Assembly: GCA_964016885.1 (NCBI GenBank)
Contig: OZ024740.1
Coordinates: forward strand, 21,824,001-21,888,000
DNA from: Eledone cirrhosa
Lineage: Eukaryota
Length of the DNA: 64,000 nt
Reading direction: 5' to 3'
Under the pieces are notes generated by a model that was given only the letters and a program-made list of their open reading frames with translations, was not told the origin of the DNA and ran no database searches. The position numbers and the translations under genes are program-made. Shown piece by piece: positions 47,251 through 56,699 of this stretch. Each line of letters starts with the position of its first letter. Within the stretch, counting starts at the first letter, position 1.

Positions 47251-48000
47251 TATATATGTGTATATATATATATATACACACATATATATATATATATATA
47301 TACACACACATATATACATATATATATATATATATACACACATATATATATATATACACACATATATATACATATATATACACACACATATATACATATA
47401 TATATATATACATATATATACACACATATATATATATATATACATATATATACACACATATATATATATATATATACATATATATATATATATATATATA
47501 TATATATATACATATATATATATATATATATATATATATACATATATATATATATATATATATATACATATATATATATATATATATATATATATACATA
47601 TATATATATATATATATATATATACATATATATATATATATATATATATATATATATATATATATACATATATATATATATATATATATATATATACATA
47701 CATATATATATATATATACATACATATATATATATATATATATACACACACATATATACATATATATATATATATATACACACATATATATATATATATA
47801 CACACATATATATACATATATATACACACACATATATACATATATATATATATACATATATATACACACATATATATATATATATACATATATATACACA
47901 CATATATATATATATATATACATATATATATATATATATATATATATACATATATATATATATATATATATATATATACATATATATATATATATATATA
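47250..48000. repeat. (TA)n/(CA) compound microsatellite
   Basis: Direct reading. Confidence 0.95.
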
Positions 48001-48174
48001 TAGATATAGATAGGTAAATATACACGGGTGTGTATGATTGTGTATAGAAGATTATGTTAATAAGAGGAATTCCAACTTTGTCTGATTTACTCGTTTTATT
48101 TACAATCCTTTAAAATATATATAATGGTATTATAATGAAATAGTATGATAGAATATTAAATTCTAAGTGTTAAT

Positions 48175-48213
48175 TGAACAAGTACTTTCATGCTTTCGCA
48201 ATCTTCAGGTTCA
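48175..48213 (-). ncRNA. Minimal type I hammerhead ribozyme of the left PLE
   Basis: Mirror of 56539-56577. Confidence 0.8.
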
Positions 48214-48588
48214 TGATATGTGGTGACAGTCGAGTTTGCAATTTTCAACTGTAATGAGATGGGTAAATTTCCTACCTTTTATACATTTTATACAGAGAAA
48301 AGTGGCTCCAGAATGCAAAGCCCTGTAAACTGTATTTCGACCAATCAGTGTGTAGTTTCACTGAATTACTACAGCTGATTGGTTTAAGCGTCACGGCTGG
48401 TTGAGCATGCTAACGACCAATAGTCATATCCAACGTATCAATTGTTTTGCTTTTTTGAAATGATGAAAATAGCATTTTCTATTAATCATCACCATCAACA
48501 TCACTTTTATTATTATTATTATTGTTGTTGTTGTTGTTGTTAGTGGTCGTGGTCATAGTGGTAGTAGAAGTAATACCCCTAGGCGTTA

Positions 48589-50775
48589 TTATTGTTCATT
48601 TAGCTTGGGTTTGAATTTATCAATAAAATTCTTTTCTTTGATTTTTCTCTTGATTTCATTTGGGCTGTGTAATTTGTAGAATGGGAATATTATAAATATT
48701 CCCTGACCACATGTTGCCAGGTGGCCGCTTAGGGGTATCTGACGGACATTTGGGTCTCTGATTTGTTGACGGTGTACCCGTGCACGTTCCGATAGTGCAT
48801 TTCCAGTTTGACCGACATATAGTTCTTCACAATTCGGGCATTTAATGCAGTAAATTAGATTTCTGCTTTTGCAGTTCATATTTGCATTTGTGAATATTTT
48901 TCCAGTTTTTGTTTTCATATATTGACCGGCGTGTATGGATTGACATGTGCCGCATCGATTATCATTGCATTTAGATACAGTGAATGATTGGTCTTTGTTG
49001 TTAAGGTCAAACTTTGCTTTTGTTAGCAATTGCTTCAAATTTTTTGGCTGTCTTTTACTAAGAGTCAAAGATCGATCTGTGATTAAGCCTTTTAATTCAT
49101 TACTTTGAGCAATGATCGGTAGGTTTGCTTTGGCAGTGTTGAAGATATTCTGGTGACATGGGTTGTGTGTCATTATAAATGGTATGACCAGTTCTTGGTT
49201 TCTTCTTCTTTGGGTTGTTCTAAGTTGTTGTATAGGTATTTTTATAGCCCGCTGTATGCCATTTTCTATAAGTAGAGATGGGTATTTTTGTTTGAGCAAA
49301 AATTCTCTTAGTTCTGTTAGGCGTTTGTACCTGGTATTCGTATCTTCTACAATGGTACAAATTCTTCTGGCTAGGCAGTATGGGATGTTGCGTTTTGTAT
49401 GAGGTGGATGGCACGACTTAAAATTCAGATATTGATGGGTGTCTGTGTGTTTATAATATATATCCGTGGTAATGGTGGTGTCGTTTTTGATTATCATTAT
49501 ATCTAGGAATGGTAATTTGGTCCTACTCATCTCTTTTGTGAATTGGAGAGATGGGTGTAGGTTATTCAGGAGGATATTGAACTCATCCAGAGTATCTAGA
49601 GATTCTGTCCAGATGATGAAACAGTCGTCAAGGTATCTCTTCCAAGATTTTTCAATGTACTTTCTAAAGTCAGTACTATATTTTTCCTCTATTTCTTGGT
49701 AGAGTTGTTGTTCTAAGTATCCCATTACAGAGTTCGCGTAAACGGGAGCAAACTTCGTTCCCATCGCTGTGCCTCTAATTTGGATGTAATTCTTTCCATT
49801 GAAGAAGAAAGTGTTGTTTTCCAGAATAAGTTTAACTGCGTCTAATATAAATGGCGCTGTGAATCTAATGGGAATCACTTCTCTATGTTTTTCCACCCAG
49901 TATTTAACCGCCTTTATTCCTAAATCATGTGTAATGTTGGTGTAAAGGCTTACCACATCAAAACTGAGTAGAAGTGAATTCGTTTCCGTGGTTTTGGGAA
50001 GATGGGACAGGAAGTCGATATCATCCCGGATGAAACTGGGTATGTGAATACATAGTGGTTTCAAAATAATGTCAACAAAATTGCTTAGACGGTGAGTGGG
50101 GCATGTTGGACCAGCTATAATAGGTCTAAGTTTTAAGTCTTTTGGGTGTAATAATTTAATGTACTCACTGTTTTGTTCTCTTACTGCCAGTTGTATTTCT
50201 TTTGACTTGTGAACTTTCGGTAGGCCATACAGGTTGCTGGGTTTCGGCTCAAAATTGGTGATGTAGTCTCTTTCCTTATCAGTAAATGAGTTGTGGTATT
50301 TTGAAGCCAGGTTGTTGATCTTCTTCATGATGTTGTGGTCTATATTTGACGGTATTTCATGATAGAATGTTGTGTCTTTCAGTTGTTCCTCAACCAAATC
50401 CTTGTAGTATTCAGTATCCATTATAACAACTGCACCCCCTTTATCTGCTTGTTTAATTATTATTGTTTTATCATTTTGTATACGTTTAAGTGCAGACATT
50501 TCTGATTTGTTAATGTTTGGCCTAACATTAGTATTATGTCTAAGAGGAAATTTAGACAGGATGTCAATGTATTGGTCGAGATAGATATTTCTTCCTTTTG
50601 GCGGAGTGAAATTTGATTTATTCTTTACTAGTGATTCATCACTCTCATTATTTTTATCAGCGAAGAATTCTACAAGACGTAATTTTCGACAGAATTCTTG
50701 GGTATCCTCCTTCAGTTCTTGGTGGTTGACTGTTGGAGTCGGTGTGAATTTCAGTCCTTTTGACAGAATTTGCAT
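48589..50775 (-). CDS. PLE reverse transcriptase-GIY-YIG endonuclease
   Basis: ADKG, YGLPKVHK, LRPII, FDVVSLYTNI, GTAMG, RYLDD, FLD, YYKHT, Cys cluster, LIYCI..LYVGQT. Confidence 0.95.
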   Translation of the reverse strand: MQILSKGLKFTPTPTVNHQELKEDTQEFCRKLRLVEFFADKNNESDESLVKNKSNFTPPKGRNIYLDQYIDILSKFPLRHNTNVRPNINKSEMSALKRIQNDKTIIIKQADKGGAVVIMDTEYYKDLVEEQLKDTTFYHEIPSNIDHNIMKKINNLASKYHNSFTDKERDYITNFEPKPSNLYGLPKVHKSKEIQLAVREQNSEYIKLLHPKDLKLRPIIAGPTCPTHRLSNFVDIILKPLCIHIPSFIRDDIDFLSHLPKTTETNSLLLSFDVVSLYTNITHDLGIKAVKYWVEKHREVIPIRFTAPFILDAVKLILENNTFFFNGKNYIQIRGTAMGTKFAPVYANSVMGYLEQQLYQEIEEKYSTDFRKYIEKSWKRYLDDCFIIWTESLDTLDEFNILLNNLHPSLQFTKEMSRTKLPFLDIMIIKNDTTITTDIYYKHTDTHQYLNFKSCHPPHTKRNIPYCLARRICTIVEDTNTRYKRLTELREFLLKQKYPSLLIENGIQRAIKIPIQQLRTTQRRRNQELVIPFIMTHNPCHQNIFNTAKANLPIIAQSNELKGLITDRSLTLSKRQPKNLKQLLTKAKFDLNNKDQSFTVSKCNDNRCGTCQSIHAGQYMKTKTGKIFTNANMNCKSRNLIYCIKCPNCEELYVGQTGNALSERARVHRQQIRDPNVRQIPLSGHLATCGQGIFIIFPFYKLHSPNEIKRKIKEKNFIDKFKPKLNEQ

Positions 50776-50822
50776 TTCATCATTGTCAAGATCTCTTTTA
50801 GATAAATTAATTATTTTAGGAT

Positions 50823-56163: not shown

Positions 56164-56330
56164 TAACGCCTAGGGGTATTACTTCTACTACCACTATGAC
56201 CACGACCACTAACAACAACAACAACAACAATAATAATAATAATAAAAGTGATGTTGATGGTGATGATTAATAGAAAATGCTATTTTCATCATTTCAAAAA
56301 AGCAAAACAATTGATACGTTGGATATGACT

Positions 56331-56475
56331 ATTGGTCGTTAGCATGCTCAACCAGCCGTGACGCTTAAACCAATCAGCTGTAGTAGTTCAGTGAAACTAC
56401 ACACTGATTGGTCGAAATACAGTTTACAGGGCTTTGCATTCTGGAGCCACTTTTCTCTGTATAAAATGTATAAAA
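56331..56475 (+). promoter_or_regulatory. Putative Pol II promoter in the PLE 3' region (mirror 48277-48421)
   Basis: ATTGG 56331, TGACG 56359, CCAAT 56370, ATTGG 56407, TATAAAA 56460 and 56469. Confidence 0.5.
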
Positions 56476-56538
56476 GGTAGGAAATTTACCCATCTCATTA
56501 CAGTTGAAAATTGCAAACTCGACTGTCACCACATATCA

Positions 56539-56577
56539 TGAACCTGAAGATTGCGAAAGCATGAAAGTACTTGTTCA
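56539..56577 (+). ncRNA. Minimal type I hammerhead ribozyme of the right PLE
   Basis: UGAAC CUGAAGA U-UGC-GAAA-GCA-U GAAA GUAC UU GUUCA: stem I UGAAC/GUUCA, GAAA-capped stem II, palindromic AGUACU stem III; predicted cut after 56572. Confidence 0.82.
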
Positions 56578-56699
56578 ATTAACACTTAGAATTTAATATT
56601 CTATCATACTATTTCATTATAATACCATTATATATATTTTAAAGGATTGTAAATAAAACGAGTAAATCAGACAAAGTTGGAATTCCTCTTATTAATATA

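Follow-up and report, generated by a model that had tools for sequence, protein, structure and literature searches.

The window analysed here, 64,000 nucleotides of Eledone cirrhosa (contig OZ024740.1, positions 21,824,001 to 21,888,000 of the forward strand), carries an insertion of two open-frame copies of a young Penelope-like element (PLE), Neptune-like by its motifs, which face each other head to head within a (TA)n microsatellite. The two copies meet at the predicted cleavage site of a hammerhead ribozyme in the element, and head-to-head junctions of the family pile up at this site across the genome. On balance, we favour the view that a head-to-head insertion of this kind is made from two target-primed complementary DNAs (cDNAs) that extend on one RNA as far as its end at the predicted hammerhead cut, where they are joined. 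The element adds a member to a class already known, and the palindrome in the window is a rare full-length case of a common structure and not a new kind of element. The family forms a large young population, in which junction positions can be tallied relative to the predicted cut and the likely start site.

Positions in the element were numbered from +1 (window position 52371, the G just 3' of the predicted hammerhead cut), with negative numbers counted back from the cut; the repeat unit is 4202 bp long (52371-56572). A first-pass annotation of this DNA had described a mirror of position x on 104752-x around a CAATT loop with three differences between the arms, and all of this was reproduced at the same positions. 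The mirror runs outward from 52373/52379, with the 5-nt loop in the centre of a palindrome of 8.7 kb, and before the arms part they differ at exactly three places (49392/55360, 48366/56386 and 48056/56696). All three are transitions, each private to one arm and absent from the other long copies examined, and both window arms have one variant in common that 12 other long copies lack. As had also been noted, the arms end at different points and the outer flanks differ: relative to the 3' cut the right arm ends at +127 (56699) and the left arm at +188 (47992), and the CA interruptions lie on the + strand of both flanks, so that these are not mirror images. Two of the earlier descriptions stood only in part. 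The copies had been called intact and full length; their frames are open, but both start at +1 and thus lack the upstream TATA box and the likely start site. The right arm had been said to begin exactly at the cut; the junction does lie at the predicted cut, but the break can be placed only within -1 to +3, since T52370 is also the native base before the cut and the overlap TGTT/AACA allows this range.

The sequence +1..+22 occurs 3033 times in the genome, corresponding to about 3,000 copies. The exact 27-mer of the window junction was found at 19 places on 12 contigs, and the 18 others are mini-palindromes of ~320 bp in (TA)n. Head-to-head loci were collected by the gap between anchors at +29..+42 of both arms, matched exactly, so that older copies are undercounted and gaps above 230 fall outside the count. 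The 925 short loci comprised 89 with gaps of 0-60, 114 with gaps of 61-170 and 722 with gaps of 171-230. At gaps of 42-47 there were 42 loci (15 window-like, 10 with a +3 end, 13 perfect and centred on AATT, and 4 others), an excess over the rate at gaps of 61-170 with a Poisson p of 4e-21, and with a downstream anchor 65 loci were scattered across gaps of 0-116. The loci that were mapped were the first ones listed, not a random draw (50/89, 50/114, 29/722, 50/214 and 22/22). Three near-identical duplicates (L036, L105 and L129) were excluded when pairing, polarity and haplotype were counted (126 of the 129 loci remaining) and kept in the histogram of 5' reach; L135, L140 and L168 were placed by hand in the first tally of 5' reach and then re-scored automatically, a rerun in which one locus shifted between the two upstream-most bins.

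The furthest 5' reach of these 129 loci, weighted per nucleotide, was 50.4 at -80..-66, 2.7 at -65..-46, 0.33 at -45..-5, 9.2 at -4..+5 and 0.77 at +6..+28, giving an enrichment at the cut of ~28-fold over the 41 nt upstream. The preference of inversion points for the cut, which had been put forward as a check on the earlier proposal, was thus borne out. It is the minor of two hot spots: the major one is -73, with 722/925 short loci in its gap window and 23/29 of the mapped start-site loci halting at -73 exactly, and we estimate that 82% of short head-to-head insertions end at -73 and 9% at -4..+5. The earlier proposal that the template 5' end was made by the ribozyme is therefore supported as a minor route, with -73 as the major end. 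The boundary at the cut is one-sided, because the perfect 8-bp palindrome AAGTACTT just upstream, at -8..-1, goes unused; its gap (64) was seen in 0/50 and 0/50 of the listed loci, and its self-pairing score exceeds that of the cut-site sequence. One locus (L078) is a blunt join with both arms starting at +1, and three (L083, L109 and L112) start at +1 after filler. Short templated fillers occur at many junctions, and the commonest junction at -73 has a 1-nt loop. Among long copies, two others end at the cut (L209 and L210), and the window locus is the only double-long one at the cut among the 4 found; two single-arm copies with a start close to the cut, L011 and L020, have ambiguous 5' ends and stand outside the counts.

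Two general accounts of the pile-up were rejected. The copying of one master junction around the genome does not fit, as three subfamily backgrounds carry the junction, in both polarities and with both arms matching the background. Joining at any palindrome irrespective of RNA ends was discarded likewise, as palindromes with higher scores are used far less.

The motif at the cut consists of a 5-bp stem I, a CUGAAGA core, a 3-bp stem II and a palindromic stem III, AGUACU, and has the CUGANGA, GAAA and UH core elements and the 4-5-bp stem I that define a minimal type I hammerhead. It is the only such motif in the element and lies on the sense strand, and a motif of the same type arose in 0/1000 dinucleotide shuffles of the unit. 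The palindromic helix III would permit a dimer, the predicted fold of two copies reaching -18.0 kcal/mol and that of one copy -5.0 kcal/mol; folded as a single RNA strand, the motif gained no stability over shuffled sequences. We file it as a predicted hammerhead only, because a U-U pair replaces the usual G10.1-C11.1 at the base of the 3-bp stem II. The G10.1-C11.1 pair is highly conserved and lies outside the core (PMC4209133). Upstream, -73 lies 31 nt downstream of the TATAAAAG box and is likely the transcription start. A hairpin of 8 bp at 56500-56526 begins right at this likely start site, and a few junctions use it (gap 175, L154 and L169).

The two arms of a locus are not equivalent at their outer ends. 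An arm was scored as tail-less when it had no match to +129..+150, most such arms ending at +124..+128, and a tailed arm (+188) was paired with a tail-less one (+127) in 119/126 loci and in 63/71 loci of an older subfamily. The arm that reaches furthest 5' was the tail-less one in 52/102 informative loci, in 28/57 of the older subfamily and in 17/36 strongly asymmetric loci (a count that excludes L099, L135, L140, L160 and L168), showing an even polarity. At the window locus the arm that donates the loop, which under snap-back would be the first strand, ends at +127, and its supposed copy runs to +188; the same arrangement was found in 12/18 of the other exact-junction loci, one of the remaining 6 (L049) having a stub arm only. 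The first-pass annotation had derived the second arm from a single cDNA that folds back on itself, in which case the copied arm should never run past the start of its template. Since the 'copy' is here longer than its template, simple snap-back of one cDNA is unsupported. Similarly, in the long copies L196 and L204 the tailed arm could not have been copied from the longer tail-less arm. At the window junction a 3-bp DNA hairpin with a 5-nt loop is possible, though when forced it has an energy of +0.6 kcal/mol, and the junction classes with 1-nt and 0-nt loops do not allow a hairpin with a loop of at least 3 nt.

As snap-back would predict, both arms usually carry the same haplotype. Loci whose arms differ at two or more diagnostic sites numbered 0/49 in the cut class, 4/48 in the middle class and 0/29 in the start-site class, and three loci (L107, L122 and L134) have arms of two subfamilies. 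Because arms share their haplotype far more than random pairs do, we conclude that both arms are usually templated by a single RNA or by RNAs from the same source.

From these observations we infer, at every step, the following scheme. The element endonuclease would cut both strands of the target, and one 3' end would prime at the UA-rich +127 and the other at the (UA)5 of +188 on the same RNA. Both cDNAs would extend to the RNA 5' end, usually the -73 start and, in about one tenth of short insertions, the hammerhead cut at +1. Their identical 3' ends could then pair across an imperfect palindrome (8/11 pairs at +1..+11, or the AATT centre; 4/5 bases at -73) or be end-joined, and repair would retain the loop from either strand. 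At the window locus, priming of both cDNAs within the 3' repeat, together with hammerhead cutting at the 5' end, would yield two full-length arms. More broadly, we see about an even chance that PLEs integrate by built-in double priming, with two fixed RNA start sites, one per target strand, and cDNAs sealed at the RNA 5' end, so that junctions record RNA 5' ends and the +1 cluster is an in vivo hammerhead footprint. If true, double priming would explain the tail, the inverted copy of the pseudo-long terminal repeat (pLTR) and the junction palindromes in a single scheme.

A modified snap-back could also be envisaged, in which a single cDNA primed at +188 reaches the cut end of the RNA, runs off it and, once folded back, serves as its own template. 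Before integration or while it proceeds, the endonuclease would then nick one or the other strand at the AT-rich +127; alternatively, later recombination between the arms would flip the loop. This route accounts for the haplotype and the rare variants common to both arms, and its parts have precedents: self-priming was proposed from junction palindromes (PMC3846280), resolution of the tail by the endonuclease was suggested (PMC8557442), and snap-back is a recognised junction class for the R2 protein (PMC11331408). However, it requires an even choice between chemically different strands (52:50 and 28:29), it leaves the junctions with 0-1-nt loops and the three two-subfamily loci unexplained, and forced hairpins have positive energies. 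In addition, rare variants were common to both arms in 13 cases and confined to one arm in 249; arms so little homogenised argue against frequent arm-to-arm exchange. We consider this route unlikely.

Twin cDNAs might also be joined near +1 without any ribozyme cutting, the +1..+5 cluster arising from a stall of the reverse transcriptase (RT) at stem I or the folded dimer, or from a near-palindrome that favours joining. The 3' strand of stem I is +1..+5, a bin at another hairpin is raised, slow cleavage is expected from U17 and the U-U pair, animal PLE hammerheads are weak in vitro (PMC4209133), and PMC11167929 found no reads at the cut site. In contrast, in most loci of the cut class the reach extends to +3 or beyond it in the 5' direction before it halts (31/40 at -4..+3, the negative positions being mostly overlap), several start at +1 exactly, and stronger palindromes at -8, +16, +44 and +46 are much less used. 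This explanation, like the modified snap-back, seems to us improbable. The locus in the window is itself very likely real, because the flanks keep one polarity, the arms end by the rule of the family, the transitions are private to single arms and one variant is common to both. Although long perfect inverted repeats are a known class of artefact, no molecule spanning the locus from its centre to unique flank was found in the contigs and reduced-representation reads, and the window holds the sole double-long pair at the cut, an assembly or read fold-back artefact, already thought the less likely in the first-pass annotation, is in our estimate very improbable given the arm ends at +127 and +188, the unmirrored microsatellite flanks, the three private transitions and a 55-nt short-read contig (depth 88) that matches the junction exactly, with 22 nt on one side and without being locus-specific.

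Several results nevertheless weigh against the reading that twin cDNAs run to a hammerhead-cut RNA end. In the older subfamily gaps of 42-47 were found in 10 loci per 480 start-site loci, versus 42 per 722; its reach at -4..+5 was 18/22 at gaps of 40-60 and 3/47 at larger gaps (3 and 6 loci at -45..-5), an estimated enrichment by 5' reach of ~5-fold, weaker than the ~28-fold above. The -65..-46 bin, beneath the 8-bp hairpin, is also raised, and stalls at RNA structure may contribute to junction positions. Two or three loci of the cut class (L058, L077 and L082) may require bases upstream of the cut. As to the motif, none of the 12 matches that an Rfam scan gave at E<=5 is a hammerhead, the base of stem II is closed by U-U and position 17 is a U. 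As to the arms, those of the cut class were identical at diagnostic sites in 48/49 loci, whereas 39% of random pairs differ at two or more sites; this, with the 13 shared rare variants and the one variant common to the window arms, fits one RNA copied twice and self-copying equally well. Among the larger asymmetric loci examined (n=11), the tailed arm was the longer in 8. Finally, hammerhead mutants left insertion in vitro unchanged, and RNA-seq reads ending at the cut were absent (PMC11167929).

The coding content supports the earlier assignment to the Penelope-like elements. ORF2 (open reading frame 2; 728 amino acids from its ATG) and ORF1 are open in both arms. ORF2 matched the Pfam families RVT_1 (E=3e-6, below the Pfam cut-off) and GIY-YIG (E=2.9e-6, above the cut-off), an RT followed by a C-terminal endonuclease as in endonuclease-bearing PLEs; no convincing Pfam family was found for ORF1. 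The ORF2 translation reads a DKG motif (QADKGG) upstream of the RT core and a CCHH arrangement in the endonuclease (IYCIKCPNCEELYVG, RVH and GHL), both named as motifs of endonuclease-bearing PLEs (PMC8557442), and CNDNRCGTC fits the CX2-5CxxC linker between RT and endonuclease of Neptune/Nematis. The pLTR formed by a partial tandem, the inverted 5' copy and the one-sided tail are likewise PLE features. A Neptune/Nematis-like bias to microsatellites was seen: 119/126 tail-less and 98/123 tailed arms terminate on the outside at a (TA)4 run, the element's own TA run possibly contributing to the latter count. On these motifs alone the element is classed as Neptune-like. ORF1 and ORF2 overlap at 53836-53929 in the -1 frame around TTTTTTA (U-UUU-UUA in the ORF1 frame), a candidate frameshift site; no stable stimulator was predicted, the 70 nt after the heptamer folding weakly (-3.4 kcal/mol).

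Table 1. Features of the head-to-head insertion and of the element (window positions).
Feature	Position	Strand	Remarks
Left arm	47992..52373	-	Starts at about +9/+12, spans the complete 4202-bp unit and ends at +188 of the next repeat; has the 61-nt tail
Right arm	52370..56699	+	From -1/+1 through the whole unit into the next repeat to +127; no tail; loop donor
Head-to-head junction	52363..52389		Overlap TGTT/AACA, loop CAATT 52374-52378; identical 27-mer at 19 genome places
Tail (+128..+188)	47992..48052	-	Left arm only
Left flank, insertion target	47240..47991		(TA)n microsatellite, CA interruptions
Right flank	56700..57195		(TA)n microsatellite, CA interruptions, same polarity as left flank
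TATAAAAG box (-104) and likely transcription start 56500 (-73)	56469..56500	+	Main 5' limit of genomic copies; putative promoter
Predicted minimal type I hammerhead	56539..56577	+	Predicted cut 56572/56573; mirror copy 48175-48213 on -
ORF1, 449 amino acids	52580..53929	+	Basic C-terminal half; mirror copy 50823-52172 on -
ORF2, 775 amino acids stop to stop	53836..56163	+	RT carrying DKG and YLDD motifs; GIY-YIG endonuclease at the C terminus; end of mirror copy at 48589 on -
TTTTTTA heptamer	53851..53857	+	Predicted -1 frameshift site inside the ORF1/ORF2 overlap
CNDNRCGTC linker	55783..55809	+	CX4CxxC motif of Neptune/Nematis elements, read from the translation; motif defined in PMC8557442

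Other arrangements of the family were seen elsewhere in the genome. A head-to-tail array of at least 4 element units, ~97% alike to the window copy, lies at L201-L202 (G000:C1:97365000-97381700) and might give rise to multimeric transcripts that contain several hammerheads. At another locus, L198 (G000:C1:64257000-64262600), the arms are joined head to head at -166/-166, and what separates them is a long TA/TC microsatellite plus a short repeated filler. The cut junctions of L034-L036, L051, L081, L094, L097, L109, L120, L210, L244 and L260 hold direct repeats of cDNA sequence that are short and templated, one form recurring in several subfamilies; they resemble polymerase-theta-type end joining. 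Short insertions of the pLTR only far outnumber copies that bear the open frames, an excess consistent with priming near the RNA 5' end or on short pLTR transcripts. Within the window, an open frame of 1006 amino acids with AP-endonuclease, RT and PHD-finger matches stands beside the palindrome among (TA)n runs (57625-60645, + strand), an apparently intact RTE-like long interspersed nuclear element (LINE). Two long tandem arrays of short units, ~91% alike between offsets, occupy window positions 1-7550 and 25720-30640.

Published work on PLEs already describes inverted copies placed head to head, palindromes at their junctions and a tail on one side, and proposes that these arise by self-priming on an antisense template (PMC3846280, PMC8557442); what appears new here is the junction footprint at the predicted cut and its mechanistic reading. 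The origin of tandem and inverted PLE copies and the cutting of their hammerheads in vivo are stated as open in the accessible parts of PMC8557442, PMC4209133 and PMC11167929. In a search of mainly open-access main texts, no report was found in which PLE inversion junctions are mapped to a hammerhead cut or in which the tail is taken as a basis for double priming, and the parts seen of a 2026 retrozyme preprint and of a review (PMC6431247) do not address junction positions. The endonuclease-bearing Pen families of Adineta vaga are alike in their head-to-head copies, junction palindrome, tail on one inverted repeat, and TATA and initiator (Inr)-like motifs in the pLTR; the accessible text of PMC3846280 gives the self-priming account and does not relate RNA ends to the junction. 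In contrast to Pen, the Eledone element has its junctions at two likely sense-RNA 5' ends, an even polarity, and arms that can both be full length.

Activities that double priming would require have been described in vitro for another PLE, Poseidon PAc. There the PLE protein, predicted to act as a dimer, cuts and extends both strands of an AT-rich target and starts at two sites that bound the tail, with a hammerhead upstream of the starts (PMC11167929); inverted products are not discussed in the accessible text, and hammerhead cleavage is dispensable in vitro. The Eledone element differs in its separate ORF1, CX4CxxC linker and 61-nt tail. Double priming yields sharp predictions for this existing system, namely the RNA site used by each arm and the loss of a junction class with a dead ribozyme. 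The predicted hammerhead shares with the minimal type I hammerheads of animal PLEs the core, the 5-bp helix I, the palindromic helix III for dimer cleavage and the position in the pLTR, and differs in its short helix II (3 bp) with U-U closure; for the animal types, only weakly active in vitro and presented without in vivo evidence, circular templates were proposed to explain tandems (PMC4209133, accessible text), whereas run-off ends are proposed here.

In R2, an HDV-like ribozyme (HDV, hepatitis delta virus) determines the 5' end of the RNA and the 5' junction (PMC3774820, PMC11331408), so that there, as proposed here, a ribozyme cut defines the cDNA end, with snap-back and end-joining classes of junction (PMC11331408). 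R2 cDNA, however, joins target DNA, whereas that of the Eledone element would join a second copy of itself, the ribozyme end being the minor one. In the twin priming of LINE-1, both target strands prime on one RNA and a microhomology join creates an inversion, the inverted and direct parts spanning different stretches of the RNA. In the Eledone element, by contrast, the arms overlap completely, two fixed starts would be used, and the structure is the rule and not an accident. Its insertions would work like twin priming, but not in the form known from LINE-1.

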